Origin: Vicinamibacterales bacterium
Lineage (GTDB): Bacteria; Acidobacteriota; Vicinamibacteria; Vicinamibacterales; UBA2999
Assembly: GCA_050250875.1 (NCBI GenBank)
Contig: JBFWNV010000003.1
Location: forward strand, 167,153 to 231,152
Reading direction: 5' to 3'
Length of the DNA stretch: 64,000 nt
Positions 5,843 to 45,876 of this stretch are shown here, in pieces (position 1 is the first letter of the stretch; every line of letters starts with the position of its first letter). Position numbers and translations under genes: made by a program. Under the pieces are notes generated by a model. The model did not search any database. It was not told where the DNA came from and saw only the letters and a list, made by a program, of their open reading frames with translations.

Positions 5843-5883
5843 CGCGCTCCCGTTCACGCCGCCCGCGCCTATACTCACCGGCG

Positions 5884-7008
5884 ATGCCCCAGCCGGCGCT
5901 CGAGTTCCTCACGCCTCGCCCGGCGGGCGGCGGCGGGCGTGGCCTGTTCGACGCCGACGAGTATGCCCGGCAGCGTGCGTTCTTCACAACGCACGACGCC
6001 CGCCCGCTGGTCGCGCTCCCGGGCCTGGCCGCCGTGCTCGGCCTCGGCGGGCTCCTCGTCAAGGACGAAACGGGGCGCGCCGGGCTGCCGGCCTTCAAGA
6101 GCGTCGGCGTCGAATTCGCGGTGGACGCGCTCGCCCGTCGCGGCGATCTCGACGGCGTTTCGACGCTGGTCTGCGCCAGCGCCGGCAACCATGGCCGGGC
6201 CGTTGCCCGGGCCGCGCGCCTGGCCGGCCTCGGCGCGACGATCTTCCTCGACCGCGACGTGGCCGCGGCGCGGGTCGACGCGATTGCCTCGGAGGGCGCC
6301 ACCATCGTCCGGGTGGCCGGCACCTACGACGACGCGGTCCGCGAGGCGGCCGCGCACGCCGCATCGAGCGGCGGGCTGGTCGTCTCCGACACCTCGTGGC
6401 CCGGCTACACGCAGATCCCGCGCGACATCATGCTCGGCTACACGCGGATCATGGACGAAGCGGCGGCGGCGTGGGGCCCCGACGGCCCGCCGGACCTCCT
6501 GGTCGTCCAGGCCGGCGTCGGCGGGCTGCTGGCGGCGGTGGCGAGCTGGTCGGCGTGGACCTACGGCGCGGCGCGGCCGCGCCTGGTGGCGGTCGAGCCG
6601 CTGCGCGCCGCGTGCGTCCAGGCCTCGGCGCGTGCCGGCCGCCCCACCGCGGTGACCGGGCCCCTGACGACCATCATGGCGGGGCTGCGCTGCGGCGAGG
6701 TGTCGCCGCTGGCGTTCGAGGCGCTGGCGGGCCTGGTGGACCTGTATCTGGCGGTGGACGACCACTGGACGCGCGAAGCGATGCGCCGGTTCGCCCGGCC
6801 CGAGCCCGGCGACGTCGCCCTGGCCGTCGGCGCCTCGGGAGCCGCCGGCCTCGCCGCCCTGCTCGCCCTGCGCGGTGACCCGGCCTGTAGCGGCGTTGCC
6901 GAGGCTCTGGACCTCACGGCGGCGAGCCGCGCCCTGGTCATCGCCACCGAGGGCGTGACCGAGCCCAACCTCTGGGCGGACGCGGTCGGGCTCGGGGCTG
7001 GGGACTAG
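5884..7008 (+). CDS. Diaminopropionate ammonia-lyase-like PLP enzyme
   Basis: LVKDETGRAGLPAFKSVG matches the VKDES-R-GL-AFK-LG PLP-lysine block of DAP ammonia-lyases (Trp-synthase-beta fold). TATACT lies at 5870-5875, 8 nt before the ATG. Confidence 0.65.
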   Translation: MPQPALEFLTPRPAGGGGRGLFDADEYARQRAFFTTHDARPLVALPGLAAVLGLGGLLVKDETGRAGLPAFKSVGVEFAVDALARRGDLDGVSTLVCASAGNHGRAVARAARLAGLGATIFLDRDVAAARVDAIASEGATIVRVAGTYDDAVREAAAHAASSGGLVVSDTSWPGYTQIPRDIMLGYTRIMDEAAAAWGPDGPPDLLVVQAGVGGLLAAVASWSAWTYGAARPRLVAVEPLRAACVQASARAGRPTAVTGPLTTIMAGLRCGEVSPLAFEALAGLVDLYLAVDDHWTREAMRRFARPEPGDVALAVGASGAAGLAALLALRGDPACSGVAEALDLTAASRALVIATEGVTEPNLWADAVGLGAGD

Positions 7009-7011
7009 GGG
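6988..7011. repeat. G-rich heptad arm (GGGCTCG GGGCTGG GGACTAG GGG) overlapping the 3' end of the preceding CDS
   Basis: Read directly. It is an imperfect reverse complement of 7077-7102. Confidence 0.6.
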
Positions 7012-7076
7012 CGCGTGCCTCGGGCCTCGAGAGGGTCGGCGGGATCCGGTGGGGCGGGCAGCCGTCTGTTCCATCT

Positions 7077-7102
7077 CCCGAGCCCCGAGACCCGAGCCCC
7101 GG
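7077..7102. repeat. C-rich heptad arm CCCGAGC CCCGAGA CCCGAGC CCCGG
   Basis: Same heptad family as 60614-60639. Partner arm is at 6988-7011, 65 nt upstream. Confidence 0.6.
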
Positions 7103-7106
7103 TCGT

Positions 7107-7139
7107 CTGGCCACCGGCCAGAGTCCCACCGGTGGCCAG
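7107..7139 (+). promoter_or_regulatory. Perfect 11-bp inverted repeat CTGGCCACCGG-N11-CCGGTGGCCAG (candidate enhancer/UAS)
   Basis: Read directly. Its centre is about 110 bp upstream of the TGGCAC element. No T-tract follows, so it is an unlikely terminator. Confidence 0.4.
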
Positions 7140-7204
7140 CCTGTCCCACTTCCGGACGATCCTTGAACCGATACCGCGGAACCCGGCGCCTGGAACTCTC
7201 GTTG

Positions 7205-7217
7205 AATCAAGATGTTG
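7205..7217 (+). promoter_or_regulatory. IHF-consensus-like site AATCAAGATGTTG
   Basis: Matches WATCAANNNNTTR at every specified position. It lies between the inverted repeat and the -24 element. Confidence 0.35.
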
Positions 7218-7231
7218 GGCCTGGAGCCCGG

Positions 7232-7247
7232 TGGCACGGCGTTTGAG
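7232..7247 (+). promoter_or_regulatory. Candidate sigma54 -24/-12 promoter TGGCACG-GCGT-TTGAG
   Basis: TGGCACG is a perfect -24 element. The -12 element is TTGA rather than TTGC. It sits about 65 nt upstream of the ATG at 7313, and an NtrC-type activator is encoded in the same gene string. Confidence 0.45.
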
Positions 7248-7312
7248 ACATTTCCCCGCAGCGGGTGCCATCCGTTTGGCTGGCGCGCCCGTCTAAGGAG
7301 CGATTCGAGTTC

Positions 7313-8575
7313 ATGGACGTTCAACGACCCGCATCCGTCGCCCGTCAGAAGAAGCTGCGCCGCATCTACATGGGCGTCGCCGCCGTCGCCGTCGTCGCGC
7401 TCGTCTCGGTGTTCCTCGCCCGGTTGAAGCCGGCGTCGCCGACGGTCGAGCGCGCCACGGTCTGGGTCGACACCGTGAAGCGCGGCGAGCTGATCCGCCA
7501 GGTGCGCGGCCTCGGCACGCTGGTGCCGGTGGACGAGGCGCGCCGCTGGCTGGCGTCGTCCACGCAGGGCCGCGTCGAGCGCATCGTGCTGCGTCCCGGC
7601 GCCCAGGTGACACCCGACACGGTGATCATCGAGCTCGCCGACCCGCAGCTCCAGCAGCAGCTGCTCGAGGCCGAGAACCAGCTGCGCGCCGCCGAAGCCG
7701 ATCTCGCCAGCCTGAAGGCCCGGCTCGACACCGAGCGGCTGAACCAGCGCTCGATCGCCGCCACGGTCGAAGCCGACTACGAGCAGGCGCGGCTCGAGCG
7801 CGAGGTCAACGAGGACCTGGCCCGGGACGGCCTGGTGTCGAACCTCATCCTCAAGCAGTCCACGGTCCGTTCGGAATCGCTGCGCACCCGCGCTCAGCTC
7901 GAGAAGGAACGCGTGTCGGTCAACGAGGAGAGCGTCCGCGCGCAGCTGCTCGGCCAGCAGGCCCGCGTCGATCAGCTGCGCACGCTGTTCCAGCTGCGGC
8001 GCCACCAGGTGGACGACCTGCGCGTCCGCGCCGGGATGACCGGCGTGCTCGAACAGGTGCCGGTGGAGGTCGGCCAGCAGGTGGCGCCGGGCACCAACGT
8101 GGCCCGCGTCGCCGACCCGAACCGCCTCAAGGCCGAGCTGCGCATCGCCGAGACGCAGGCCCGCGACCTCACCATCGGCCAGGTCGCGTCGGTGGACACC
8201 CGCAACGGCATCATCCCCGGCCGGGTCATCCGCATCGACCCGGCGGCGCAGAACGGCACCGTCACGGTCGACGTCGAGCTGCAGGGCGAGCTGCCGCGCG
8301 GCGCCCGTCCGGATCTGAGCGTCGACGGCACGGTTGAACTCGACCGCCTGGAGAACGTCTTGTACGTGGGACGGCCGGCCTTCGGGCAGGAGAACAGCGC
8401 CGTCGGCCTGTTCCTGGTCGACGCGGCCTCGGGCGAAGCCAGCCGGGTCCAGGTACAGCTCGGGCGCAGTTCGGTGAACACGATCGAAGTGAAGGGTGGC
8501 GTGAAGGAAGGCGATCAGCTGGTGCTGTCGGACATGTCCGCGTGGGACGCGTTCAACAGCGTGCGGCTGCGGTAA
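7313..8575 (+). CDS. HlyD/MacA-family periplasmic adaptor (membrane fusion protein)
   Basis: ATG at 7313 with AAGGAG 12 nt upstream. N-terminal TM IYMGVAAVAVVALVSVFL, long coiled-coil segment (QLLEAENQLRAAEADLASLKARL...), beta-barrel C-terminus. Confidence 0.8.
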   Translation: MDVQRPASVARQKKLRRIYMGVAAVAVVALVSVFLARLKPASPTVERATVWVDTVKRGELIRQVRGLGTLVPVDEARRWLASSTQGRVERIVLRPGAQVTPDTVIIELADPQLQQQLLEAENQLRAAEADLASLKARLDTERLNQRSIAATVEADYEQARLEREVNEDLARDGLVSNLILKQSTVRSESLRTRAQLEKERVSVNEESVRAQLLGQQARVDQLRTLFQLRRHQVDDLRVRAGMTGVLEQVPVEVGQQVAPGTNVARVADPNRLKAELRIAETQARDLTIGQVASVDTRNGIIPGRVIRIDPAAQNGTVTVDVELQGELPRGARPDLSVDGTVELDRLENVLYVGRPAFGQENSAVGLFLVDAASGEASRVQVQLGRSSVNTIEVKGGVKEGDQLVLSDMSAWDAFNSVRLR

Positions 8576-8604
8576 AGGAACGGCGGGCGAAGCCCGACCG
8601 CCAG

Positions 8605-8623
8605 CCCGAGGCCCGAGCCCCGG
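8605..8623. repeat. Single C-rich heptad arm CCCGAGG CCCGAGC CCCGG
   Basis: Read directly. It lies in the 65-nt spacer just upstream of the SD and ATG at 8641. Confidence 0.5.
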
Positions 8624-8640
8624 TTCAAAAAGGAGCCACG

Positions 8641-9345
8641 ATGTCCGACTCTGCTCAGTCCCTCATTCGTCTCGACGGTATCAAGAAGGTCTTCTTGACC
8701 GACGAGGTGGAGACGCACGCCCTCTCGGGCATCCACATGGAGATCAAGCAGGGCGAGTACGTGGCCATCTCGGGACCGTCGGGCTGCGGCAAGTCGACGC
8801 TGCTGGCCATCCTCGGGCTGCTCGACTCGCCCTCCGACGGCAAGTACTGGCTGAACGGCCAGGAAGTGGCCGACCTGCCGATGTCGCAGCGGGCCCGGGT
8901 CCGCAACCGTGAGATCGGGTTCATCTTCCAGAGCTTCAACCTGATCGGCGATCTCACCGTGTTCGAGAACGTCGAGCTGCCGCTCATCTACCGCGGCATG
9001 AAGTCGGCCGAGCGGCGCGAACGCGTCAACGCGGCGCTCGAGCGGGTCGGCATGGCGCACCGCGCCAAGCACCTGCCGTCGCAGCTCTCGGGCGGCCAGC
9101 AGCAGCGCGTCGCGGTGGCCCGCGCCGTCGCCGGCCAGCCGTCGATCCTGCTCGCCGACGAGCCCACCGGCAACCTCGACTCGAAGAACGGCGAGGCGGT
9201 GATGGACCTGCTGCGCGAACTGCACCGCGCCGGCGCGACCATCTGCATGGTCACCCACGACCCGCGCTACGCCGCGCACGCCGACCGCGCCATCCACCTG
9301 TTCGACGGCCGGGTGGTCGAAGACAACGTCGCGGCGCTGGCCTGA
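8641..9345 (+). CDS. ABC transporter ATP-binding protein, MacB/LolD-type (ATPase 1)
   Basis: ATG with AAAGGAG upstream. Walker A GPSGCGKST, signature LSGGQQQR, Walker B ILLADEPT, H-loop MVTHD. Confidence 0.9.
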   Translation: MSDSAQSLIRLDGIKKVFLTDEVETHALSGIHMEIKQGEYVAISGPSGCGKSTLLAILGLLDSPSDGKYWLNGQEVADLPMSQRARVRNREIGFIFQSFNLIGDLTVFENVELPLIYRGMKSAERRERVNAALERVGMAHRAKHLPSQLSGGQQQRVAVARAVAGQPSILLADEPTGNLDSKNGEAVMDLLRELHRAGATICMVTHDPRYAAHADRAIHLFDGRVVEDNVAALA

Positions 9346-9370
9346 GGCCGGTGCGACGGGCCGCGACACC

Positions 9371-11797
9371 GTGATCGCCGTGGGCGTGCTCGACGACCTC
9401 GGCCAGGGCCTGCGGGCCCTGCGCCGCGCGCCCGGCTTCTGCGCGCTCGCCCTCCTCACCCTGGCGCTGGGCATCGGCGGCACCGCCGCGATGTTCAGCG
9501 TCGTCTACGGCGTGCTGCTGCGGCCGCTGCCGTTCGCCGCGCCCGAGCAGCTCGTCCGCGTCTGGAGCACCGCCGGCAACGGCGAGCGCGGGTCGTTCGC
9601 CCCCGGCCGCTTCCTCGACGTCGAGCGGGAGTCGCGGGCGCTCGGCGGCGCCGCCGCCTACATCAGCACCTTCAGCGGCGTGGCCGCCGGCGGCGAACCC
9701 GTCCGGCTGGCCGGCGCCGAGGTGACCGCCGACTTCTTCGACGTGCTCGGCGCGCCGGCGGCGCGCGGCCGCACGTTCACCGCCGCCGATCGGCCCGGCG
9801 CGGCGCTCCTGGTCCTCTCCGACGGCGCGTGGCGCCAGCAGTTCGGGGCCGACCCGGCCATCGTCGGCCGGTCGCTGCGCGTCGACGGCCAGCCGTTCGA
9901 GGTCGTCGGCATCATGCCGCGCGACTTCGCGCTGCCCGAGCGGGCGCGCTTCTGGCGCCTGGCGCCACAACTGGTCCCGACGCCGCCGATGGAGGTCGAG
10001 GGCGTGCTGCTGGCCCAGCGCGGCCTCGCCTACATGGACGTCATCGCCCGCCTCGCGCCCGGGGTCACGCCGGCCGAGGCGGCGGCCGAGCTGCGGGTGC
10101 TGGCCGCCACGCTCGGCACGCGTCATCCCGACGACGACGCCGGCAACGGCTTCGACCTCGAGCCGGTCTACGAGACCATCGTCGGCGACGTGCGGCGATC
10201 GCTGCTCCTGCTGTTCGCCGCGGTCGGCGCGGTGCTGCTCATCGCCTGCACCAACGTCGCCAGCCTGATGCTGGCGCGCGCCCTCGGCCGCCGGCGCGAG
10301 CTGGCGGTGCGCATTGCGCTCGGTGCCCCCCGCGGCCGACTCGCCCGCCAGCTGATCGTCGAGAGCCTCGTGCTGGCGCTCGCCGGCGGCGCGCTCGGCG
10401 TCGTCGTCGCCGGCTGGGCGCTCGACGGGCTGCGGCTGCTGCTGCCGGCCACCGTGCCGCGCCTGGCGGCGATCCGCCTCGACTGGACGGCGGTGGCGTT
10501 CGCCGCGGCGACGTCGCTGGTCGTCGGCCTGGCCTTCGGCACGGCGCCGGCGTGGACGAGCCGGGCCCTCGCCTCGTTCGACGCGCTGCGCGACGGCGGA
10601 CGCACCAGCACCGGCGGGCGCCAGTGGCTGCGCCGCGGGCTGGTCGTCGGCCAGGTCGCGCTGGCCGCCGTGCTGCTCGCCGCCGCCGGCGTCATGGCGA
10701 CGAGCCTGTTCAAGCTGCAGCGCGTCGATATCGGCTTCGACGCCCGGGGCGTCGTCACCCAGCAGCTGGTCCTGCCGCAGTCGCGCTACGACCGCGCCGC
10801 CCAGGTGCGCTTCTACGAGGCGGTGACCGAACGGCTCGCCGCCGATCCACGCGTCGCCGCTGCGGCCGTCGTCTTCCCCTCGCCGTTCGGCGTCAGCCAG
10901 ACCGCCGCCACGATCCGGCTCGATCGGCCGGCGCCCGGCAGCGCCGCCGATGCCGAGCACGTCGTGCGCCTGGCCTCGATCACGCCGGGCTTCTTCGACG
11001 CGATGGGCATCCCGCTGCTGGCCGGCCGCCGTTTCGACCCCGCCGACTTTCCCCAGGCGGCACGCCGCGCCATCGTCAACCGCGCGTTCGCCGCGCGCCT
11101 GCTCGGCGGCGGCGACGTCATCGGCCGCTACCTGCAGCTGGGTGACGACGCCGACGACCGCTACACGATCGTCGGCGTGGCCGCCGATGCGCGGGCCGCC
11201 CGGCTCGACCAGGCCGCCGAGCCGATCGCCTACCTGCCGCACAGCCATCTGACCCTGCCGTTCATGCGGCTGATCGTCCGCGGCACCGGCGCCGAGGCCG
11301 CGACCCGCGACGCGATGGCGATGGCGCTTCGCGCCGAAGCCCCCGACCTCGCCCTCGATCCGCCGCAGACGCTGGCGGCCCTGGTGAGCGACTCCACGGC
11401 CGAGCCGCGCTTCCGCAGCCGCCTCGTGGCCGCGTTCGCCGCCACGGCGCTCGGCCTGGCGATCCTCGGGCTCTACAGCCTGGTCAGCTTCACGGTGTCG
11501 GGCCGCACCCGCGAGATCGCGACCCGCCTGGCGCTCGGCGCCACGCCGGCGGCGATGCGGACCGGCGTGATTCGCGAGGGCCTGGCCCTGACCGCCGCCG
11601 GCCTGGCGGTCGGCCTGAGCGTCGCGGCGGCGCTCGGCCGACTCGTCGAAGGGCTGCTGTACGAGACCGCGGCGCTCGACCCCGCCGTCACCGCGGCGCT
11701 GGTGGTGGTGATGACGCTGGCCGCGGTCGTGGCATGCTATCTTCCGGCCCGGCGCGCCATGCGCGTCGCGCCCACCGAGGCGCTGCGCGCCGAGTGA
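9371..11797 (+). CDS. Duplicated FtsX-domain ABC permease, ADOP-like (MacB-type fold twice in one chain)
   Basis: 808 aa. N-terminus LRALRRAPGFCALALLTLALGIGGTAAMFSVVYGVLLRPLPF is typical of ADOP/MacB permeases. There are two TM-periplasmic domain-FtsX units, ending ...LARALGRRRELAVRIALGA and ...SGRTREIATRLALGA. Confidence 0.85.
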   Translation: MIAVGVLDDLGQGLRALRRAPGFCALALLTLALGIGGTAAMFSVVYGVLLRPLPFAAPEQLVRVWSTAGNGERGSFAPGRFLDVERESRALGGAAAYISTFSGVAAGGEPVRLAGAEVTADFFDVLGAPAARGRTFTAADRPGAALLVLSDGAWRQQFGADPAIVGRSLRVDGQPFEVVGIMPRDFALPERARFWRLAPQLVPTPPMEVEGVLLAQRGLAYMDVIARLAPGVTPAEAAAELRVLAATLGTRHPDDDAGNGFDLEPVYETIVGDVRRSLLLLFAAVGAVLLIACTNVASLMLARALGRRRELAVRIALGAPRGRLARQLIVESLVLALAGGALGVVVAGWALDGLRLLLPATVPRLAAIRLDWTAVAFAAATSLVVGLAFGTAPAWTSRALASFDALRDGGRTSTGGRQWLRRGLVVGQVALAAVLLAAAGVMATSLFKLQRVDIGFDARGVVTQQLVLPQSRYDRAAQVRFYEAVTERLAADPRVAAAAVVFPSPFGVSQTAATIRLDRPAPGSAADAEHVVRLASITPGFFDAMGIPLLAGRRFDPADFPQAARRAIVNRAFAARLLGGGDVIGRYLQLGDDADDRYTIVGVAADARAARLDQAAEPIAYLPHSHLTLPFMRLIVRGTGAEAATRDAMAMALRAEAPDLALDPPQTLAALVSDSTAEPRFRSRLVAAFAATALGLAILGLYSLVSFTVSGRTREIATRLALGATPAAMRTGVIREGLALTAAGLAVGLSVAAALGRLVEGLLYETAALDPAVTAALVVVMTLAAVVACYLPARRAMRVAPTEALRAE

Positions 11798-11798
11798 T

Positions 11799-11826
11799 CC
11801 CCCGGGCCCCGAGCCCCGAGTCCCGC
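11799..11826. repeat. Single C-rich heptad arm CCCCCGGGCCCCGAGCCCCGAGTCCCGC
   Basis: Fills the entire spacer between the permease stop (11797) and the ATG at 11827. No SD is visible. Confidence 0.5.
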
Positions 11827-12495
11827 ATGATTCGCTTAGCCAACATCGAGAAGTCCTACCGCCACGGCGTCAGCCAGACCTTCGTGCTGCGCCGCGTCAG
11901 CGTCGAGATCGCCCAGGGCGACTTCGTGTCGATCATGGGGCCGTCGGGCGCCGGCAAGAGCACGCTGCTCCACATCCTCGGCATGCACGACTCGGCGTGG
12001 AGCGGCGAGTACTGGCTGCACGACCAGCCGGTGCACGCCCTGTCGAACAAGGACCGGCTGCGGCTGCAGAAGCAGCACATCGGCTTCGTGTTCCAGAGCT
12101 ATCACCTGCTCGACAACCTGACGGTCTACGAGAACATCGACCTCCCGCTCTCCTACCGCGACGTCAAGCGCACCGAGCGGCAGGGCATGGTCGGCGACAT
12201 CCTCGACCGGTTCAACATCGTCGGCAAGAAGGATCTCTATCCGAACCAGCTCTCGGGCGGCCAGCAGCAGCTGGTCGCCATCGCCCGCGCCGTCGTCGCC
12301 AACCCGACGATCATCCTCGCCGACGAGCCGACCGGCAACCTGCACTCCGACCAGGGCCGCGAGATCATGGAGCTGTTCGCCAAGCTCAACGCCCAGGGCA
12401 CGACGGTCGTGCAGGTGACCCACTCGGAAGCCAACGCCGCCTTCAGCCGCCGCGTCATCCGCCTGAAGGACGGCTGGATCGTCGATGCGGCCTGA
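11827..12495 (+). CDS. ABC transporter ATP-binding protein (ATPase 2, distinct paralogue)
   Basis: Start at MIRLANIEKSY. Walker A GPSGAGKST, LSGGQQQL, Walker B IILADEPT, H-loop VTHS. It differs from ATPase 1 over most positions by eye. Confidence 0.9.
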   Translation: MIRLANIEKSYRHGVSQTFVLRRVSVEIAQGDFVSIMGPSGAGKSTLLHILGMHDSAWSGEYWLHDQPVHALSNKDRLRLQKQHIGFVFQSYHLLDNLTVYENIDLPLSYRDVKRTERQGMVGDILDRFNIVGKKDLYPNQLSGGQQQLVAIARAVVANPTIILADEPTGNLHSDQGREIMELFAKLNAQGTTVVQVTHSEANAAFSRRVIRLKDGWIVDAA

Positions 12496-13846
12496 CGTCC
12501 CGCCGCGCGTCCTCATCGCCGACGACCAGGCCGACGTCCTCGAGGCGCTGCGCCTCCTGCTCAAGCCCGAGGGCTACGTCATCGACACGGCTGCCTCGCC
12601 GGCCCAGGTGACGCGGGCGCTCGACCTCAAGGACTACGACGTCGTCCTCATCGACCTGAACTACGCGCGCGACACCACCTCGGGCGAAGAGGGGCTCGAT
12701 CTGCTCAGCCGCATCCACGCCGCCGACGAGTCGCTGCCGGTGGTGGTGATGACGGCCTGGGGCTCGGTGGACGTCGCCGTCGAGGCGATGCGCCGCGGCG
12801 CCCGCGACTTCATCCAGAAGCCGTGGGACAACGAACGCCTGCTGTCGATCCTGCGCACGCAGACCGAGCTGGGCCGGGCGATCCGCCGCGGCCGCCGGCT
12901 CGAGCTGGCCAACCAGGCGCTGCAGGCCGACGGCCACTCGCCGCTGCTGGCCGAATCGGCGGCGATGCGGCCGGTGCTGGAAGTGATCGCGCGGGTCGGC
13001 CCGGCCGACGCCAACGTCCTCATCACCGGCGAGAACGGCACCGGCAAGAGCCTGGTGGCGCAGGCCCTGCACGCCGTGTCGCCGCGCGCCGCGCGGCCGA
13101 TGGTCACCGTGAACGCCGGCGGCATGGCCGAGGGCGTCTTCGAGAGCGAGCTGTTCGGCCACGTCCGCGGCGCCTTCACCGACGCCAAGGTCGATCGGGT
13201 CGGCCGCTTCGAACTGGCCGACGGCAGCACGCTGTTCCTCGACGAGATCGCCAACGTGCCGCTCAGCCAGCAGACCAAGCTGCTGCGCGTGATCGAGACC
13301 GGCGAGTTCGAACGGGTCGGCTCGTCGAAGACCCGCAAGGTCAACGTGCGCGTCATCTCGGCGACCAACGCCGACCTCGCCGCCGAAGTGGCGGCCGGGC
13401 GGTTCCGCCAGGACCTGCTGTTCCGTCTCAACACCATCGAGATCGCCCTGCCGCCGCTGCGCGACCGCCGCGAGGACATCCCGCTGCTGGCGCGGCACTA
13501 CCTGCGCCTGCACGCCCAGCGCTACCGCAAGTCGCTCACCGGCTTCGACCCGAGCGCCCTCCAGCTGCTGCTCGACCACCGCTGGCCGGGCAACGTCCGC
13601 GAGCTCGATCACGCCATCGAGCGGGCGGTGCTGATGGCCCAGGGCAACGTCGTCCGCGCCACCGACCTCGGCCTGCGCGTCGAGCACGCCGGCGCCGGGC
13701 GGCTCGAGGACATGAGCCTCGAGGAAGTCGAAGCCTTCCTCATCAAGAAGGCGATGGCCCGCTACGGCAACGTCAGCCAGTCCGCCCGGGCCCTCGGCCT
13801 GTCGCGCAGCGCGCTCTACCGCCGCCTGGAGCGCTACAAGCTGTAA
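12485..13846 (+). CDS. Sigma54-dependent response regulator (receiver-AAA+-Fis HTH, NtrC family)
   Basis: Receiver VLIADDQ...VVLIDLNY. Walker [15 protein letters not shown] in place of GAFTGA. Walker B LFLDEI. C-terminal [21 protein letters not shown]. Overlaps ATPase 2 by 11 nt. Confidence 0.85.
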
Positions 13847-13869
13847 CCTGAGGGCCCCGTCCCTCGCCC

Positions 13870-15183
13870 ATGAACCGTCTGCGCTTCGATCAGCACGCCG
13901 TCGCGCTGGCCCTCGGCGCGTCGCTGCCGGCGCTCGTCGCGGCGCTGCTGCTGCTGTGGACCGGCGGCTACTCGGCCAAGGTGCAGTGGACGGTGACCAC
14001 GGTGCTGGCCGCCGTCGCCGCCGGGTGCCTGGTGTCGCTCCGCGCCCACGTCGTGACGCCGCTGCAGACGCTGGCCAACCTGATCGCCGCGATGCGCGAG
14101 GACGATTTCTCGATCCGCGGCCGCACGGTGTCGGCCGGCGACCCGCTGGGCGACGTGATGAGCGAGGTCAACGCCCTGGCCGAGACGCTGCACGAGCAGC
14201 GCCTCGGTGCCGTCGAGGCGACGGCGCTGCTGCGCACGGTGATGGAGCAGATCGACGTCGCCGTGCTGGCCTTCGACCCGGCGCAGCGGCTGCGCCTGGT
14301 CAACCGCACGGGCGAACGGCTGCTCGGCCGCCCGGCCGAGCAGGCGCTGGGACGCTCGGCGCAGGAACTCGGCGTCACCGACTGGTTCGGCGAGGCGCCG
14401 CGGATCGTCGATCTGGCCGTGCCGGGCGGCGTCGGGCGCTGGGAGGTGCGGCGCACCACCTTCCGGCTCGGCGGGCAGCGTCACGACCTGCTGGTCCTCT
14501 CGGACGTCAGCCGGCCGCTGCGCGAGGAGGAGCGCCAGGCCTGGCAGCGCCTCATCCGCGTCATCGGCCACGAGCTGGGCAACTCGCTCGGGCCGATCAA
14601 GTCGATCGCCGGATCGCTCGACGCCCTGCTCAACCGCGAGCCGCCGCCCGCCGACCTGCGCGACGACCTGCGCCGCGGCCTGCAGGTGATCGGCGCGCGC
14701 GCCGAGTCGCTGAGCCGGTTCACCGCCGCCTACGCGCAGCTGGCCAAGCTGCCGCCGCCGCGGCTCGCCCCGGTGGTGCTGAAGCCGCTGCTGCAGCGCG
14801 TCGCCGGCGTCGAGACCCGCGTGCCGGTGACGGTGCGGCCGGGGCCCGACATCACGCTGAACGTCGACGGCGATCAGATCGAGCAACTGGTGATCAACCT
14901 GCTGCGCAACGCCGCCGAGGCGACCCTCGACGCCGGCGGACACGGCGTGTCGATCGGCTGGCGGCAGACGCCGCGCGGAGTCGACGTGTGGGTCGACGAC
15001 GACGGACCGGGTCCGCCGAAGACCGCCAACCTGTTCGTGCCGTTCTTCACCACCAAGCCCGGCGGCTCGGGCATCGGACTGGTGCTGTGCCGGCAGATCG
15101 CCGAGGCGCACGGCGGCACGCTGGCGCTCGAGCTGCGCCCGCGCGGCAGCGGCTGTCGCGCCACCCTCACGCTGCCGATATGA
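13870..15183 (+). CDS. Sensor histidine kinase (2 TM with about a 3-residue loop, HAMP, PAS, HisKA, HATPase)
   Basis: TM1 AVALALGASLPALVAALLLLW, loop SAK, TM2 VQWTVTTVLAAVAAGCLVSL. H-box VIGHELGNSLGPI. N-box NLLRNAAEA. DDGPG and GGSGIGL. Confidence 0.85.
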   Translation: MNRLRFDQHAVALALGASLPALVAALLLLWTGGYSAKVQWTVTTVLAAVAAGCLVSLRAHVVTPLQTLANLIAAMREDDFSIRGRTVSAGDPLGDVMSEVNALAETLHEQRLGAVEATALLRTVMEQIDVAVLAFDPAQRLRLVNRTGERLLGRPAEQALGRSAQELGVTDWFGEAPRIVDLAVPGGVGRWEVRRTTFRLGGQRHDLLVLSDVSRPLREEERQAWQRLIRVIGHELGNSLGPIKSIAGSLDALLNREPPPADLRDDLRRGLQVIGARAESLSRFTAAYAQLAKLPPPRLAPVVLKPLLQRVAGVETRVPVTVRPGPDITLNVDGDQIEQLVINLLRNAAEATLDAGGHGVSIGWRQTPRGVDVWVDDDGPGPPKTANLFVPFFTTKPGGSGIGLVLCRQIAEAHGGTLALELRPRGSGCRATLTLPI

Positions 15184-15189
15184 GCGGGC

Positions 15190-16608
15190 ATGACCGGGCC
15201 GAGCGGCTGGACGTGTGCGTCGTGTGAGCGCCGGGTGCCACCGGGTGTCGAGGTGTGCCGATGTGGCGCGCCGCGTCCGCGGCCGGCGGCGGCCGTCGAG
15301 GCCGACGACGACGCGGCGGAGGACGGCGGCGGTCTGAACCCGGGCAAGGTGCTGCTGGCCGGCGTCGCGGTCGTCGGCCTGGCGGCGGTCTACTTCTGGA
15401 CCACCGCCGCGCCGGCCCCGGCCACGCCCGCGCCGGCGGTTTCCAGCCCGACCGGCAGCACGCCGCCGTCGGCGCCGCCGGTTCCGCAGCCGCGCGTCGA
15501 GACGGCGCCCACCTCGGAGAGCATGGCCGCCGAGTCCGCGCCGGCGAGCGCGACGTACACGACACCCGATCCGCCGACGCCGGCCCCGCTGTCCCGGGCG
15601 GACGCGTCGGGCCTCGGGCTCGAGGATCTCGTCGCCCGCACCGGTGGCGCCGTCGTGATGGTCGAGGCCGGGCCGTCGCGCGGCACTGGCTTCTTCGTGC
15701 GCCCCGACCTCATCGTCACCAACGATCACGTGGTGTCCGGGCAGACCGCGGTGACGGTGCGGCTCCACGACGGCTCGGCCCGCGCCGCGCGTGTCGAGCG
15801 CGCCGTGGCCGACGTCGACCTCGCCCTGCTGCGCCTGTCGGGCGCCGGCTCGGCGACGGTGCTGCCGCTCGGCCAGGCCAGCGCCGTGCGGACCGGCCAG
15901 GAGGTGATCGCCATCGGCTCGGCCCTTGGCCTGCAGAACACCGTGACCCGCGGCATCGTCAGCGCCCAGCGCCGCGCCGGCAGCGTCGTGCTGCTGCAGA
16001 CCGATGCCGCGATCAATCCGGGCAACAGCGGCGGACCGCTGCTCGATCGGCAGGGCGTCGTCGTCGGGGTCACCACGCTCAAGATGGGGGGACCGGCCGA
16101 GGGCCTCGGCTTCGCGGTGGCCGCGGACCACGTCGCGGCCCTGGTCGAGGGGCACTCCTCGACCCGCATCGCGACCGCCGCCGGCGCGCCGCCGCCCGCG
16201 GCAGGGGCGGCCGCGCCGAGCGCCATGCCCGGGTTCGGCGCCGCCGGGTCGAGCGCCGATGCCCGCCGCACCGACGGCGAGCAGATCTTCGAGCGGACGA
16301 TGGCGGCCCTGGCCGAGCAGGCCGCGCAGGTGGATGGTCACTGGCAGCGTTTCACCAGCGCGTGCGCGCCACGGCCCCGGCCAGGGGGCGACCGCGAGTG
16401 GTTCGGACTGTCGGAGGGCCGCGTCGAGTACACCAGCCGGGACCGCAACTGTCCGTACTGGCTCAACGACATGACGTCGATGAGCCGTGAGTTCGACGCG
16501 GCGATGCGCGCCGCCGGCGAAGCCGCGCGCCGCGCCGGGGTCTTTCCCGGCACGCTGCGCGACGTGCGCCGCCGTCACCGGCTCGACTGGCCCGGCTTCG
16601 ACCGCTGA
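15190..16608 (+). CDS. Membrane-anchored trypsin-fold (S1/HtrA-like) serine protease with an N-terminal zinc ribbon and a non-PDZ C-terminal domain
   Basis: CASCERRVPPGVEVCRCG. TM LLAGVAVVGLAAVYFW and a Pro-rich linker. Triad contexts TNDHVV, DVDLALLRL and NPGNSGGPLLD. The roughly 140-aa tail has Cys residues and no PDZ-like GLGF motif. Confidence 0.75.
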   Translation: MTGPSGWTCASCERRVPPGVEVCRCGAPRPRPAAAVEADDDAAEDGGGLNPGKVLLAGVAVVGLAAVYFWTTAAPAPATPAPAVSSPTGSTPPSAPPVPQPRVETAPTSESMAAESAPASATYTTPDPPTPAPLSRADASGLGLEDLVARTGGAVVMVEAGPSRGTGFFVRPDLIVTNDHVVSGQTAVTVRLHDGSARAARVERAVADVDLALLRLSGAGSATVLPLGQASAVRTGQEVIAIGSALGLQNTVTRGIVSAQRRAGSVVLLQTDAAINPGNSGGPLLDRQGVVVGVTTLKMGGPAEGLGFAVAADHVAALVEGHSSTRIATAAGAPPPAAGAAAPSAMPGFGAAGSSADARRTDGEQIFERTMAALAEQAAQVDGHWQRFTSACAPRPRPGGDREWFGLSEGRVEYTSRDRNCPYWLNDMTSMSREFDAAMRAAGEAARRAGVFPGTLRDVRRRHRLDWPGFDR

Positions 16609-22193: not shown

Positions 22194-22271
22194 TGGTCGG
22201 GATGCCGGGATTCGAACCCGGGACCTCCTGCACCCCAAGCAGGCGCGCTAGCCAGGCTGCGCTACATCCCG
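22194..22271 (-). tRNA. tRNA-Pro (anticodon GGG), CCA encoded
   Basis: Hand-folded cloverleaf: acceptor CGGGATG/CATCCCG, D arm GCGC/GCGC, anticodon stem CCTGC/GCAGG with loop TTGGGGT, T arm CCGGG-TTCGAAT-CCCGG, then ACCA. 78 nt. Confidence 0.9.
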
Positions 22272-34944: not shown

Positions 34945-36705
34945 TCATGACGGCGCGACGCCGGCGCGGTCCGGCCGGCGCGCCTCGGCGAACTGCGCCC
35001 GATGGAGGCGCGCGTAGTGGCCCTGGGGCCGCGCCAGCAGCTCCTCGTGGCGGCCGGCCTCGACCAGGCGGCCGCGCTCGAACACCAGGATGGCGTCGGC
35101 CCGCTGCACCGTCGACAGCCGGTGGGCGATGACGACGCAGGTGCGGTTGCGCATCAGGGTGGTGAGGGCCTCCTGCACCTGCCGCTCCGACTCGGAGTCG
35201 AGCGACGAGGTCGCCTCGTCGAGCACGAGGATCGGCGCGTCGCGCAGCAGCGCCCGGGCGATGGCCAGCCGCTGCCGCTGCCCGCCCGACAGGCGCTGCC
35301 CGCGTTCGCCGATCGTCGTCGCGTAGCCGGCGGGCTGGCTCTGGATGAACTCGTGGGCGTTGGCGGCGCGGGCGGCGGCCTCGATCTGCTCGCGGCTGGC
35401 GTCGGGCATCCCGTAGGCGATATTAGCCGCGATCGTGTCGTCGAACAGCACGGTCTCCTGCGTGACCACGCCGATCTGGCGGCGCAGCGACGCCAGCGTC
35501 ACGTCGCGGACGTCGTGGCCGTCGACGAGCAGCGCCCCCGCCGACACGTCGTAGAAGCGTGGCAGCAGGTTGGCCAGCGTGGTCTTGCCGGCGCCGCTCC
35601 GGCCGACGATGGCGACGACCTGCCCGGCCGGGACGGTGAACGACACCCCGTTCACCACCAGCTTGCCGTGGCCGTCTTCGTAGCCGAAGGAGACGTCGCG
35701 GTACTCGATGGCGTGCTGGAACGGCGGCAGCGTCACGGCGCCGGGCCGCTCCACCACTTCGGTGTGCGCGTCGAGCAGTTCGAACACGCGCTCGGCGGCG
35801 GCCGCCGCCTGCTGCAGGTTGGCGTTGACCCGCGTCAGCTTCTTGATCGGCCCGTACATGAGCAGCAGCGCGGCGACGAACGAGGTGAACTCGCCCGGCG
35901 TGAGCCGGCCGGCGGCGATCTCCTGGCTGCCGTACCACAGCGCGCCGACGATGGCCACGCCGCCCAGCGCCTCCATCAGCGGCGGCAGCAGCGACAGCAC
36001 GCCGGTGACGCTCATGTTGGTGCGGTAGAGCTGATCGGAGGCGGCGCGGAACTTGGCCGCTTCGCGGCCCTCGGCCAGGAACGCCTTGACGATGCGGTGC
36101 CCCGAGAACGCTTCGCCGGCGACGTGCGACAGCCGCTCGAGCGCCTCCTGGCTGCGCCGCGACACCGTGCGGAGCCGCCGGCCGAGCCGGGCGAGCGGGT
36201 AGACGACCAGCGGCGCCGCGGTGACGCAGACCAGCGCCAGGCCGGCGTCGATGTAGACCAGCAGCGCGGCGTAGCCGACCACCGTCAACGACTCGCGGGC
36301 GATGTCGCCGACGGTCTCGGACACCGCCCGCTGCACCAGGCCGACGTCGTTGTTCACCCGCGACAGCAACTGGCCGGTCGATCGGCGGGCGAAGAAGGCC
36401 GCCGACTGGCCGAGGACGTGCTCGAACAGGTCGGTGCGCAGGGCGCGGACGACGCGGTGGCCGAGGTCGTCCATCCAGTAGCTGGAGAAGAACGCGCCGA
36501 CGCCCTTGACGACGTAGACGACGACGATCGCGGTGCCGACGAAGGCCAGCGACTCGCGCGCCGGCAGCACCTGGTCGAGGATCGGCTTGACCAGCCAGGC
36601 CAGCGCCGCCGAGGCCGCGCCGTACAGCAGCATCGCCGCGAACGCCCCGGCGATCACCAGCCGGTGCGGTGCTGCGTAGCGGAGCAGGCGCAGCAGGGGA
36701 TCCAT
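34945..36705 (-). CDS. Fused TMD-NBD ABC exporter, MsbA/PglK-like
   Basis: Start at MDPLLRLLRY (cat 36703-36705), 1-nt overlap with the galE stop. Six-TM N-terminal half. GRSGAGKTT, LSGGQRQRLAIARAL, LVLDEATSSLD. Confidence 0.8.
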   Translation of the reverse strand: MDPLLRLLRYAAPHRLVIAGAFAAMLLYGAASAALAWLVKPILDQVLPARESLAFVGTAIVVVYVVKGVGAFFSSYWMDDLGHRVVRALRTDLFEHVLGQSAAFFARRSTGQLLSRVNNDVGLVQRAVSETVGDIARESLTVVGYAALLVYIDAGLALVCVTAAPLVVYPLARLGRRLRTVSRRSQEALERLSHVAGEAFSGHRIVKAFLAEGREAAKFRAASDQLYRTNMSVTGVLSLLPPLMEALGGVAIVGALWYGSQEIAAGRLTPGEFTSFVAALLLMYGPIKKLTRVNANLQQAAAAAERVFELLDAHTEVVERPGAVTLPPFQHAIEYRDVSFGYEDGHGKLVVNGVSFTVPAGQVVAIVGRSGAGKTTLANLLPRFYDVSAGALLVDGHDVRDVTLASLRRQIGVVTQETVLFDDTIAANIAYGMPDASREQIEAAARAANAHEFIQSQPAGYATTIGERGQRLSGGQRQRLAIARALLRDAPILVLDEATSSLDSESERQVQEALTTLMRNRTCVVIAHRLSTVQRADAILVFERGRLVEAGRHEELLARPQGHYARLHRAQFAEARRPDRAGVAPS

Positions 36706-37703
36706 CACCGGGACACGGTAGCCCGATAGCCTCCCGGGTGCGCCGCCCGCCACCGGGCGGCGTCGGCGACGATCGTCGCCAGGTCGCTGCGCCGCGGGCG
36801 CCAGCCCAGCTCGGCCTGGATGCGCGCGCTCGCGGCGTAGAGCGCCGACGGGTCGCCGTCGCGCCGCGGCGCCGGCGTCCACGGCACCGGACGGCCGACC
36901 ACGCGCGATACGGTGTCGATGACCTCGCGGACCGACCACGGCCGGCCGGTGCCGACGTTGTAGGCCCCGCCGCGGTGGCCGCCGGCGAGCGCGTCGAGGG
37001 CGTGGAGGTGGGCGGCGGCGAGATCGGCGACGTGGACGTAGTCGCGCAGGCACGTGCCGTCGGGGGTCGGGTAGTCGAGGCCGAACACCTGCAGCGGCTC
37101 GCCGCCGCGGGCGGCGTCGATGGCGCGCGGCACGAGATGGATCTCGGGATCGTGGTCCTCGCCGAGTTCGCCGTCGGGATCGGCGCCGGCGGCGTTGAAA
37201 TAGCGCAGCGCGATCGCCCGCAGGCCGTGCGCGACGCCGAAATGGCGCAGCGCCCGCTCGACGGCCAGTTTCGACTCGCCGTAGGCGTTCACCGGCACCT
37301 GCGGGTGATCCTCGGTGAGCGGCAGCGTCACCGGTTCGCCGTAGGTGGCGCAGGTGGACGAGAACACGAACCGCTCGACGCCCTCGGCGGCCATCGCCTC
37401 GAGCAGGCGCAGCGATCCGGTGACGTTGTTCTCGTAGTACTTGGCGGGCTGGCGCACCGACTCGCTGACCGTCAGCCAGGCGGCGAAGTGCATCACCGCG
37501 TCGATGCCGTGCTCGCGCAGTGTCGCCCGCACCGCGGCGCTGTCGTGGACCCGGGCCCGCACCAGCGGCACGCCGCGCACCGCCTCGGCATGGCCGGCCG
37601 AGAGGTCGTCGAGCACGACCACGGCGTGGCCGGCGGCGCGGAGCGCCTTCACGGCATGGCTGCCGATGTACCCGGCCCCGCCCGTGACCAGCACCCGGCC
37701 CAT
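36705..37703 (-). CDS. galE: UDP-glucose 4-epimerase
   Basis: VLVTGGAGYIGSH Rossmann motif and YGESK (YxxxK). Confidence 0.85.
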   Translation of the reverse strand: MGRVLVTGGAGYIGSHAVKALRAAGHAVVVLDDLSAGHAEAVRGVPLVRARVHDSAAVRATLREHGIDAVMHFAAWLTVSESVRQPAKYYENNVTGSLRLLEAMAAEGVERFVFSSTCATYGEPVTLPLTEDHPQVPVNAYGESKLAVERALRHFGVAHGLRAIALRYFNAAGADPDGELGEDHDPEIHLVPRAIDAARGGEPLQVFGLDYPTPDGTCLRDYVHVADLAAAHLHALDALAGGHRGGAYNVGTGRPWSVREVIDTVSRVVGRPVPWTPAPRRDGDPSALYAASARIQAELGWRPRRSDLATIVADAARWRAAHPGGYRATVSR

Positions 37704-37707
37704 CGCG

Positions 37708-40272: not shown

Positions 40273-40274
40273 CG

Positions 40275-45851: not shown

Positions 45852-45876
45852 CCGCTTCGCTCCATTCCCGCATCCA

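Follow-up and report, generated by a model that had tools for sequence, protein, structure and literature searches.

What is encoded by a compact run of seven genes in a soil acidobacterium of the order Vicinamibacterales, in which the parts of an ABC transporter adjoin a two-component system, and how might it be switched on? An earlier note on this DNA had described a seven-gene module, which it took for a diderm analogue of the Bce modules in which the transporter is the sensor. We examined the locus within the window, that is, the whole 64-kb stretch of DNA analysed, and in related genomes. It is likely that the locus is a sigma54-dependent operon, probably self-activating, that encodes a MacAB-like exporter together with its cognate NtrC-type two-component system. 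The genes are:

7313..8575, + strand: periplasmic adaptor (membrane fusion protein), HlyD / RND_mfp
8641..9345, + strand: ABC ATPase 1 of the MacB/LolD/DarD type, with an ABC_tran domain
9371..11797, + strand: ADOP-family duplicated permease of 808 aa (TIGR03434), with two MacB_PCD and two FtsX domains
11827..12495, + strand: ABC ATPase 2 of the MacB/LolD/DarD type by domain and family profiles, overlapping the EBP gene by 11 nt
12485..13846, + strand: NtrC-type response regulator / sigma54 enhancer-binding protein (EBP), with REC, AAA+ and HTH_8 domains
13870..15183, + strand: histidine kinase with a TM hairpin, HAMP, PAS, DHp (H-box HELGNSL) and CA, identified by HAMP, PAS and HATPase domains
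15190..16608, + strand: membrane-anchored S1C (HtrA-like) protease (Trypsin_2, 6e-31)

All seven + strand reading frames were recovered where the earlier note had placed them, with GC3 of 0.92-0.96 in frame, and profile matches agreed with its domain assignment for each. Its start codons are backed by homologues that align from residue 1, in preference to the longest-ORF starts at 7265, 8542 and 11734, and its spacings (+65, +25, +29, -11, +23 and +6 nt) are correct. Because the 11-nt overlap of the ATPase 2 and EBP genes is kept in 32 of 50 loci, and because no + strand terminator-like site was found within the cluster, the genes probably constitute one tight, co-transcribed unit.

A search of gene neighbourhoods showed that the order of a core is conserved across species, but that the permease and the protease are not fixed members. 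The order adaptor, ATPase 1, (permease), ATPase 2, EBP, kinase is kept in about 75 Vicinamibacterales species, and the link between transporter and two-component genes in about 80 species, plus two other lineages. In Polyangium the order is adaptor, ATPase, permease, EBP, kinase; in Terriglobia (L083) three permeases are followed by EBP, kinase, adaptor, ATPase 1 and ATPase 2; and in Acidipila (L074) four tandem permeases precede EBP and kinase. The conserved core is thus the adaptor, both ATPases, the EBP and the kinase. The seven-gene composition does not hold as a unit: the permease slot is filled in 33 loci and deleted in 20-22 of about 55 informative ones (about 40% of related species), and of about 65 loci only 16 (about a quarter) have the protease after the kinase.

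We then considered what the transporter genes encode. The permease matches the curated ADOP model TIGR03434 at 799.4 bits (cutoff 622.3) over residues 7-808, sharing its duplicated architecture along the full length, and also matches MacB_PCD (3.1e-38) and FtsX (3.6e-21), each in two stretches. It consists of two units of TM1, a MacB periplasmic core domain and TM2-4, giving 8 predicted TM helices (4+4). Its best solved relative in a PDB sequence search is MacB (1.6e-19); BceB and YbbP gave no match to it at E <= 1e-3 in that search. A BceB-type permease, with ten TM helices and a single large extracellular domain between TM7 and TM8, was rejected on the 8 TM helices and two MacB_PCD domains, and with MacB as the nearest relative.

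The name ADOP, for 'Acidobacterial duplicated orphan permease', refers to the lack of a neighbouring ATPase gene. This orphan trait, which is one of context and not a sequence criterion, fails for the window permease, as two ATPase genes flank it. Unlike the orphans, it also lies after an adaptor gene and before a two-component system. Its paralogues at about 40% identity are orphans, one standing alone (L084) and one in a PadR-ADOP pair (L085). The permease evolves fast (dN/dS 0.38 versus 0.06-0.26 in the core genes), and its deletions leave scars in the slot; in the permease-deleted species the ATPases and adaptor stay under purifying selection. The permease is best explained as a fast-evolving subunit that sets specificity and can be exchanged.

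The adaptor has a single N-terminal TM helix (residues 18-36), scores 116.4 bits against TIGR01730 RND_mfp (cutoff 94.9), also matches HlyD_3 and HlyD_D23, and is 70-92% identical among Vicinamibacterales loci. The two ATPases are paralogues, 47% identical, and are separate polypeptides without fusion to the permease; both match models of the MacB N-terminal half, LolD, DarD and FtsE at 1e-57 to 1e-78. In ATPase 1 the Walker A, LSGGQ, Walker B and H-loop motifs are all intact, and it is 85-99% identical among loci, with a dN/dS of 0.06-0.11. That the two ATPases form a heterodimer would be the parsimonious reading only, and two homodimeric units could be formed instead; the order ATPase1-permease-ATPase2-permease in locus L028 and the single ATPase of Polyangium count against the heterodimer.

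These components closely recall MacAB-TolC, a type VII ABC tripartite efflux pump that works by mechanotransmission (PMC5985334). Shared with it are a 4-TM unit of FtsX type, in which a MacB periplasmic core domain separates TM1 from TM2, the MacB/LolD-family ATPases and an adaptor gene placed first in the operon. Here, unlike MacAB-TolC, a single 808-aa chain holds both permease units, the two ATPases differ and are separate polypeptides, and the operon has a putative sigma54 promoter and its own two-component system. A further difference is that no outer-membrane factor gene is nearby: no TolC-like gene was found among the 27 window genes scanned, nor in related loci. In E. coli, tolC is encoded apart from the pump genes, and the outer-membrane factor could be placed likewise here. 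YbbAP-TesA (PMC12646458) resembles the locus in having a type VII permease that is duplicated within one chain and bears two periplasmic domains like those of MacB, and in its separate ATPase subunits; however, YbbP has 10 TM helices, including a TM5-6 linker pair, and is served by one ATPase gene acting as a homodimer, and the partner of YbbAP is a lipid hydrolase where here there is an adaptor. The pump is therefore best regarded as a predicted MacB-type (type VII ABC) envelope exporter, its direction of transport and its substrate being predictions as well.

The control region upstream of the adaptor gene has the following elements.

7123..7137, + strand: upstream activator (UAS) box 1, GTCCCACCGGTGGCC, a predicted distal EBP site
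7143..7157, + strand: upstream activator box 2, GTCCCACTTCCGGAC, some 90 nt ahead of the -24 element
7192..7217, + strand: GGAAC...CTCGTT box, then an IHF-like site, AATCAAGATGTTG (7205-7217), between UAS and promoter
7232..7246, + strand: sigma54-type -24/-12 element, TGGCACGGCGTTTGA, with GA, not GC, at -12

Both boxes fit GTCCC-N5-6-CGGAC, and box 2 is an imperfect palindrome, GTCC-N7-GGAC. The UAS box is present in all 53 distinct upstream regions (48 by a strict pattern), against 0.76 expected in shuffles, and is the sole intergenic match in the window; in 45 of the 53, box 2 is preceded at a distance of 20-21 nt by a second box. An inverted repeat at 7107-7139, specific to the window, contains box 1, and it is this repeat that position 7107, where the earlier note began the region, marks. 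The IHF-like motif occurs in 36 of 53 regions (0.12 expected). Ahead of the adaptor gene, TGGCAC-N5-nTGn was found in about 54 of 57 loci, with a spacer whose sequence varies. The sigma54-type element proposed at 7232-7246 is thus real and conserved, but its -12 reads TTGA, not TTGC: compared with GG-N10-GC, the -24 and the spacing match, and a UAS and an IHF-like site accompany them. Nearly all Vicinamibacterales loci have a -12 without the canonical C (TTGA/G/T), and the Polyangium promoter is a canonical GG-N10-GC. Among the annotated window genes, which are a scanned subset of the ORFs, no rpoN was seen.

Terriglobia and Polyangium (Myxococcota) also have recognisable versions of this UAS / IHF-like / -24/-12 arrangement. 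The same UAS box stands ahead of both Terriglobia operons (L083); in Polyangium (L076/L078) it stands reverse-complemented ahead of the operon, and the CTCGTT box is conserved there too. Given the control region in 53 of 53 upstream regions and its recurrence in these lineages, the proposal that the EBP acts back on its own promoter fits a deeply conserved architecture and is well supported, the boxes being the putative EBP sites.

The EBP itself has the REC domain, AAA+ sigma54-interaction domain and C-terminal HTH of the NtrC family (Response_reg 3.3e-24, Sigma54_activat 4.5e-63, HTH_8 1.7e-11). Its loop reads GAFTDA instead of GAFTGA, it scores under the cutoffs of every named equivalog (e.g., AtoC, ZraR and NtrC), and its recognition helix is conserved out to Polyangium. 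The TM helices of the kinase are joined by 4-8 residues, with the turn at 32-35 in an AlphaFold model, and the hairpin carries a conserved LLW.G.Y..KV.WT motif. Conservation is 75-82% in HAMP, PAS and DHp and 36-55% in the TM helices. Its best solved relatives are ZraS and ThkA, and it has weak matches to the PhoR and PnpS families. The kinase therefore resembles an intramembrane sensor in its very short loop, but it is not a bare one, having strongly conserved HAMP and PAS domains; because it keeps these, its layout is nearer to PhoR than to BceS. ZraSR and AtoSC share with the present pair a REC, AAA+, HTH_8 regulator, a kinase DHp-CA closest to that of ZraS and a promoter, here a predicted one, of the classical UAS / IHF / -24/-12 layout. 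Unlike them, the pair here has no periplasmic sensor domain, scores below every equivalog cutoff and has a MacB-type pump as its predicted target.

Together, these observations suggest how the operon may work. The kinase would be held in the membrane by a hairpin without a periplasmic domain, and would be switched on by what we infer to be a membrane-level or cytoplasmic cue. The likeliest route of input would be HAMP-PAS, which is conserved and might sense what state the transporter is in, although the kinase may act alone. Once phosphorylated by the kinase, the EBP would bind at the two GTCCC-N5-6-CGGAC boxes, which lie 90-110 nt ahead of the -24 element, and an IHF-like bend would deliver it to sigma54 holoenzyme at TGGCAC-N5-TTGA. 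The entire operon would then be transcribed, and as this includes the regulator genes, positive feedback would result. The pump would clear the inner membrane or periplasm of an amphiphilic or hydrophobic compound, exporting it through an outer-membrane duct encoded elsewhere.

A different account of sensing is offered by BceRS-BceAB, the modules by which Firmicutes sense and resist antimicrobial peptides (PMC4513084, PMC10314905), in which an FtsX-superfamily ABC transporter likewise lies beside a two-TM kinase with almost no external loop, and a feedback loop acts onto the transporter genes. Were the present kinase without an input of its own, its hairpin would dock on the permease and be switched by the conformational cycle of the transporter, so that expression would track transport demand. 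The short, motif-bearing loop is compatible with this, as is the constant adjacency of the kinase/EBP pair to ADOP-type transporter genes in two phyla, most directly in Acidipila, where the pair sits right behind four permease genes; and BceAB-BceS provides the experimental precedent. Yet in the roughly 40% of species whose locus has lost the permease, the hairpin motif is unchanged and the ratio of TM to cytoplasmic rates in the kinase (about 2) is the same; and within the kinase, conservation is lowest in the TM helices and highest in HAMP and PAS. In a mirror-tree comparison, the divergence of the hairpin did follow that of the permease (partial r = 0.52-0.56, versus 0.21-0.27 for the unrelated neighbours PALP and Sua5), but HAMP-PAS and the EBP AAA+ domain, which are not expected to touch, gave an equally high partial-Mantel r of 0.54, so the method is confounded by rate class. 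The proteins also differ. BceB has 10 TM helices and one extracellular domain, against 8 TM helices and two MacB-type domains in the MacB-like permease here; the present kinase has HAMP and PAS, its regulator is an NtrC-type sigma54 activator where Bce modules have an OmpR-type one, an adaptor and a second ATPase gene are present, and the host is diderm. We regard such flux sensing as conceivable but doubtful.

Alternatively, HAMP-PAS might read the nucleotide or conformational state of the ATPases from the cytoplasm, directly or through an adaptor protein, while the working permease may be supplied in cis or by a gene elsewhere. In diderms, the kinase PhoR has a TM hairpin whose periplasmic loop is negligible, carries its PAS domain in the cytoplasm and receives its signal from an ABC transporter (PMC9239213), and PhoU bridges PstB and the PhoR PAS domain (PMC9239213, PMC4423584, PMC5775613). 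The present kinase has the PhoR layout (TM hairpin, tiny loop, cytoplasmic PAS, DHp, CA) as well as the family matches mentioned; the ATPases, at 85-99% identity, are its invariant and most conserved neighbours, and translation of the EBP gene is coupled to that of ATPase 2. A kinase that reads the ATPases would also account for the survival of the system when the cis permease is lost. However, the likeness ends at kinase layout: PstSCAB imports its substrate and belongs to another ABC type, PhoB is OmpR-type, and PhoU, on which signalling there depends, has no counterpart as a gene or domain in the cluster or flanking genes. HAMP-PAS correlates no better with the ATPases than with the EBP AAA+ domain, Acidipila has no ATPase gene within 10 kb of the kinase, and the idea is purely inferential; on balance it appears unlikely. 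That the seven genes are mere neighbours, with the two-component system controlling unrelated targets and another activator serving the transporter promoter, is highly improbable: EBPs are able to act on distant operons, and protease and permease are demonstrably not fixed members, but three lineages and about 80 species keep the adjacency, the overlap of ATPase 2 and EBP genes is retained, and the UAS box, unmatched in other intergenic DNA of the window, is conserved jointly with the EBP recognition helix.

The protease, at +6 nt here, had been counted in the same operon, but this placement is confined to the minority of loci given above. It begins with a Zn ribbon and a single TM helix; a Pro/Ala-rich linker then leads to the protease domain, behind which lies a conserved helical C-terminal domain (AlphaFold model). 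The ribbon cysteines C9, C12, C23 and C25, the triad H180/D210/S280 and an invariant C-terminal pair, C392/C421, are conserved in the family alignment. The catalytic domains of HtrA1, HtrA2 and DegP match residues 163-323; HtrA/DegP proteases carry one or two PDZ domains at the C terminus, but a domain search gave no PDZ match here, and the C-terminal 120 residues are predicted helical. Some public gene calls shorten this protein, clipping the Zn ribbon. In other relatives, family members 42-45% identical to it lie within polysaccharide/glycosyltransferase gene clusters. The protease is a lineage-specific passenger, outside the conserved machine.

The earlier note knew of no described system of this composition. 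This needs qualification: ADOP is curated as TIGR03434, PhoR-PhoU-PstSCAB is a precedent, and so is a link between sigma54 and FtsX-type ABC genes. Specifically, a 2025 in silico study reports sigma54 promoters enriched upstream of COG0577/COG1136 ABC genes, FtsX-type 'antimicrobial peptide' systems, in Gammaproteobacteria, Opitutia and Bacteroidia (PMC12316311). The term 'Acidobacteri' is absent from its main text, and its passages on these systems describe no cognate two-component system, UAS or variable permease slot, all of which are present here. From this locus, a large family of "orphan" permeases gains its first candidate ATPase motors, adaptor and regulator.

The earlier note had described seven same-strand ORFs, and their coordinates are borne out by ORF positions, third-position GC and the starts of homologs; profile searches also agree with the domain calls for all seven proteins.

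Genes of the module, by window position
7313-8575, + strand: adaptor, HlyD/RND_mfp, TIGR01730 above cutoff in the profile search
8641-9345, + strand: ATPase 1, MacB/LolD/DarD-type, with Walker A, LSGGQ, Walker B and H-loop intact
9371-11797, + strand: permease, 808 aa, with two MacB periplasmic core domains and two FtsX domains
11827-12495, + strand: ATPase 2, MacB/LolD/DarD-type, with Walker A, LSGGQ, Walker B and H-loop intact
12485-13846, + strand: regulator (EBP, an NtrC-type sigma54 enhancer-binding protein), with REC, sigma54 AAA+ and HTH_8 domains
13870-15183, + strand: kinase, with two TM helices and HAMP, PAS and HATPase domains
15190-16608, + strand: protease, Trypsin_2

The successive spacings are +65, +25, +29, -11, +23 and +6 nt, third-position GC in these frames is 0.92-0.96 (window GC ~74%), and homolog alignments begin at residue 1 of the start codons chosen earlier. 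The two ATPases share 47% identity. Amidohydrolases and a PLP-dependent enzyme flank the cluster upstream, and convergent genes for Sua5, M16 peptidases, DUF3810 and Der lie downstream; these are housekeeping genes, and the module limits were therefore placed at 7008 and 16610. Crude, E. coli-tuned scans for terminators and sigma70 promoters gave no + strand match within the cluster. Co-transcription of the transporter and regulator genes appears likely, because the same 11-nt overlap of ATPase 2 and EBP is kept in 32 of 50 loci and the cluster contains no internal terminator-like site. No TolC-like gene, PhoU or rpoN was found among the annotated genes near the locus. The sole Rfam match within the window is a tRNA gene (22197-22271, - strand).

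We mapped the window proteins onto 80 species-representative loci drawn from the kinase alignment (L-numbers denote these related loci in other genomes, P-numbers homologous public proteins). The names borne by kinase homologs assign the organism to Vicinamibacterales (Acidobacteriota). Throughout Vicinamibacterales the genes run adaptor, ATPase 1, [permease], ATPase 2, EBP, kinase, and their products share with those of the window 70-92% identity (adaptor), 85-99% (ATPase 1), 82-97% (ATPase 2), 78-96% (EBP) and 68-92% (kinase). Outside Vicinamibacterales, the same kinase/EBP pair lies behind an adaptor, an ATPase and a permease in Polyangium, behind four tandem permeases of the window permease's family in Acidipila, and, in a second Terriglobia genome (L083), between three such permeases and an adaptor-ATPase1-ATPase2 operon. 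Since the gene order is conserved within Vicinamibacterales and these three arrangements occur beyond it, the comparison points to a functional link between the two-component system and this type of transporter that is old and robust.

Several records in the comparative set deserve comment. Ten metagenome-assembled genome (MAG) records (L005, L027, L052, L067, L047, L054, L061, L063, L065 and L066) carry a typical Vicinamibacterales locus with kinase identity of 68-92% yet have Bifidobacteriaceae, Acidimicrobiia, Cyanobacteriota or 'cyanobacterium' in their titles; taxonomic mislabeling or contaminated bins are the probable cause. Two contigs of MAG CAWJVW01 (L022 and L023) each bear a copy of the module, one with a frameshifted permease, and have identical downstream genes and identical identities to the window, which may reflect duplication in the assembly or in the genome itself. 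A 23,432-bp JGI metagenome contig encodes both P0121, 99% identical to the window permease, and P0241, 100% identical to the window protease, so this strain, or one very near to it, has been sampled elsewhere.

According to the earlier note, the output of the system returns to the operon's own promoter. The region ahead of the adaptor gene contains the following elements.

Elements of the control region, by window position
7123-7137: box 1, GTCCCACCGGTGGCC, upstream of the adaptor gene
7143-7157: box 2, GTCCCACTTCCGGAC, an imperfect palindrome GTCC-N7-GGAC
7192-7217: GGAAC...CTCGTT box with IHF-like site, AATCAAGATGTTG
7232-7246: sigma54-type promoter element, TGGCACGGCGTTTGA
7295-7300: Shine-Dalgarno sequence

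Conservation was counted over 53 distinct related upstream regions. Box 2 occurs in all 53 (48 under the strict pattern), against 0.76 expected from shuffles, at a fixed position ~90 nt ahead of TGGCAC; in 45 of the 53 it is preceded, at a distance of 20-21 nt, by a second box, and the IHF-like motif is present in 36 of the 53 versus 0.12 expected. Across related loci the -24 element is essentially invariant and the spacer sequence variable. In the Terriglobia locus L083, the same box, GTCCCAAAATCGGAC, precedes the EBP-kinase operon and the adaptor-ATPase operon alike. Its exact reverse complement precedes the Polyangium operon, where a further box, the CTCGTT motif and a promoter of canonical GG-N10-GC form are present as well. 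Conservation of the EBP recognition helix extends over the window, L083 and Polyangium. The control region is a predicted sigma54 promoter of classical architecture, conserved together with its EBP, and this gives strong support to the proposed feedback. Scanning the 64-kb window with the box pattern gives this promoter and one chance match within a coding region (28053); a search for the same activator sites elsewhere in the window and beside orphan permease genes yielded no further promoter, and no wider regulon emerged.

Two variants of this region were observed. At -12 (window 7243-7246 and its equivalents in ~54 loci), Vicinamibacterales have TTGA, TTGG or TTGT and almost never the canonical TTGC, and the Polyangium version has GC. 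In the distant Vicinamibacterales locus L073, a second GTCCC...CGGAC box (7718) precedes ATPase 2 and has apparently given the ATPase2-EBP-kinase genes an activator site of their own.

The permease is a full-length member of the 'Acidobacterial duplicated orphan permease' (ADOP) family (TIGR03434, 799 bits versus a cutoff of 622), yet its position between two ATPase genes contradicts the 'orphan' context of that family. Hydropathy analysis gives eight TM helices: the unit [TM1, periplasmic domain, TM2-4] occurs twice in direct repeat, with ~35 cytoplasmic residues linking the two copies. MacB structures are its closest solved relatives, and BceB and YbbP, which have 10 TM helices each (PMC12646458), are absent from its matches among solved structures. 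Because of these three features the pump is MacAB-like, not Bce-like, and the Bce analogy drawn earlier does not hold for the permease. The locus also departs from the Bce module in having a kinase that is not bare and an NtrC-type regulator where an OmpR regulator would be expected. It is likened instead to MacAB, a type VII ABC exporter (PMC5985334), with the difference that the pump is here placed under a two-component system of the NtrC-type sigma54 kind.

The window and 33 further loci have the permease between the ATPase genes, and it is missing from 20-22 loci scattered over clades, so the seven genes are not the fixed unit that had been supposed. Several loci retain scars: permease residues 17-82 can still be read in the L071 spacer (E = 4e-14), the L073 slot (5846-7900) contains N- and C-terminal remnants of the permease, fused, together with an inserted FkbM-type methyltransferase gene, and weak C-terminal traces are left in L025 and L067. 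Given the scattered absence and these scars, the loss is therefore secondary and has been repeated. The permease is also by far the fastest-evolving gene, with 43-47% identity where the ATPases have 82-90%. In rough NG86 estimates made at extreme GC3, its dN/dS is 0.38 in loci having the gene, where the adaptor, ATPase 1 and ATPase 2 give 0.20, 0.06 and 0.13; in loci that lack it, all three remain full-length, with values of 0.19, 0.11 and 0.18. The adaptor and ATPases are thus under purifying selection after permease loss. A single locus, L028 (2982-8582), has two ADOP permeases, in the order ATPase1-permease-ATPase2-permease-EBP-kinase, an arrangement compatible with an ancestral pair of ATPase-permease units.

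Intergenic 7-nt tandem arrays (CCCCGAG / GGGCTCG), often in inverted pairs, occur in window spacers at 6988-7029, 7077-7101, 8604-8622, 11800-11825, 60498-60543 and 60614-60638. At the same spacers, relatives have (TCCCTAG)n, (GTGGGTC)n...(CTACCCA)n or (GTGCTCA)n (L026, L027 and L071 between the ATPase genes, L075 upstream), and some of the arrays sit exactly at permease deletion sites. They may be a lineage-typical intergenic repeat, perhaps involved in deletions.

The protease begins with a conserved Zn ribbon (C9, C12, C23, C25) and one TM helix, followed by a disordered Pro/Ala linker and an HtrA-type catalytic domain (H180, D210, S280); in place of a PDZ domain it ends in a helical, family-conserved domain with two invariant cysteines (the AlphaFold model, pLDDT 73, served for topology only). 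Its inclusion in the operon stands in part: since it lies close behind the kinase in 16 loci, the majority of them in the window's own clade, and overlaps the kinase gene in L001, the two are likely co-transcribed in this lineage, but most other loci have a methyltransferase, Sua5 directly or inserted genes in its place. Elsewhere in Vicinamibacterales (L088, L089), family members with 42-45% identity are embedded in glycosyltransferase/polysaccharide clusters. A role as a conserved output or maturation factor was rejected on its absence from most loci and on the presence of family members in polysaccharide clusters; the protease is a passenger specific to its lineage and does not define the module. 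The window's own polysaccharide cluster (34945-46812; MsbA-like ABC exporter, UDP-glucose dehydrogenase, GT4 glycosyltransferases, Bac_transf priming transferase) resembles the L088/L089 sets and has no protease, and the gene after the kinase is the only family member in the window at E < 1e-5. Public protease gene calls (P0241, P0243, P0281; window 15190-15234) often start 15-25 codons late and drop the first CxxC of the Zn ribbon, which is conserved in the family alignment.

The kinase is predicted to form a TM hairpin of helices 6-31 and 36-77 with a 4-residue turn (AlphaFold model, pLDDT 62, topology only), followed by HAMP, PAS, DHp (H-box HELGNSL) and CA domains. Three readings of the input step alone were roughly weighed within the main explanation. 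Autonomous sensing, by the membrane part or the PAS domain, has a substantial chance of being correct, though somewhat short of even. Bce-like coupling, the transporter-as-sensor idea proposed earlier, is rather doubtful. The kinase does lack any periplasmic domain, its hairpin carries a conserved motif (LLW.G.Y..KV.WT), transporter genes are its invariable neighbors, and a mirror-tree signal links hairpin and permease (partial Mantel, partial r = 0.52-0.56; r = 0.21-0.27 for unrelated fast-evolving neighbors). However, kinase HAMP-PAS and EBP AAA+, between which no contact is expected, score equally high by the same method (r = 0.54), so the mirror-tree signal is confounded by rate class and was given little weight as evidence of co-evolution. 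A Bce-type TM-TM mechanism is further opposed by the TM helices being the least conserved part of the kinase (36-55%) and HAMP, PAS and DHp the most (75-82%), and by the hairpin motif and the TM-to-cytoplasmic rate being the same whether or not a cis permease is present. In layout the kinase matches PhoR, whose signal comes from the PstSCAB transporter via PhoU and the PhoR PAS domain (PMC9239213, PMC4423584, PMC5775613). That the ATPases are invariant would agree with a comparable cytoplasmic route from PAS to ATPase, but the locus has no PhoU-like gene, and we consider this coupling unlikely.

Among the large paralogous families of Acidobacteriota, which are dominant soil bacteria, are the ADOP permeases, and the naming of the family left the question of what powers them; to our knowledge they have so far had no assigned ATPase, adaptor or regulator. 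Because the permease has been lost repeatedly while the adaptor and ATPases stay under purifying selection, the simplest inference is that these proteins may be able to work with permeases encoded elsewhere, and we regard this use in trans as the most interesting lead of the locus. It can be extended to a proposal to which we give only a small chance: the adaptor and both ATPases would constitute a shared, sigma54-controlled, demand-regulated motor that energizes ADOP permeases generally. The slot permease would be an exchangeable specificity cassette, many 'orphan' ADOP permeases would plug into the same motor in trans, and the loop-less kinase would read motor activity, in PhoR or Bce fashion, so that expression follows demand. 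Consistent with a shared motor are the repeated, scarred deletions and the intact, selected adaptor and ATPases; the three or four tandem permeases adjoining the same two-component system in Terriglobia, with one ATPase pair beside them in L083 and none at the Acidipila locus; and the true orphan ADOP paralogs (~40% identical) in related genomes, one solo and one paired with PadR.

Full-text literature searches returned no account of this system or of ADOP biology, ADOP appearing only in two incidental mentions, and no case in which a MacB/FtsX transporter and an intramembrane kinase are joined with a sigma54 two-component system. A 2025 in-silico survey reports FtsX-type ABC genes preceded by sigma54 promoters in other phyla (PMC12316311). 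The GTCCC-N5-6-CGGAC boxes and sigma54 promoter, conserved from Vicinamibacteria to Myxococcota, form a precisely defined candidate regulatory site that is directly testable, and transporter-coupled kinase signaling could be examined here in a diderm. Its evolutionary pattern is one of a strongly conserved motor and regulator with a fast-evolving, repeatedly deleted permease. If this is merely a regulated efflux pump, it would still be a well-delimited new regulon, not a new principle. The locus supplies concrete candidates for the ATPase, adaptor and regulator of ADOP permeases, and a shared motor, if true, would answer what powers them.
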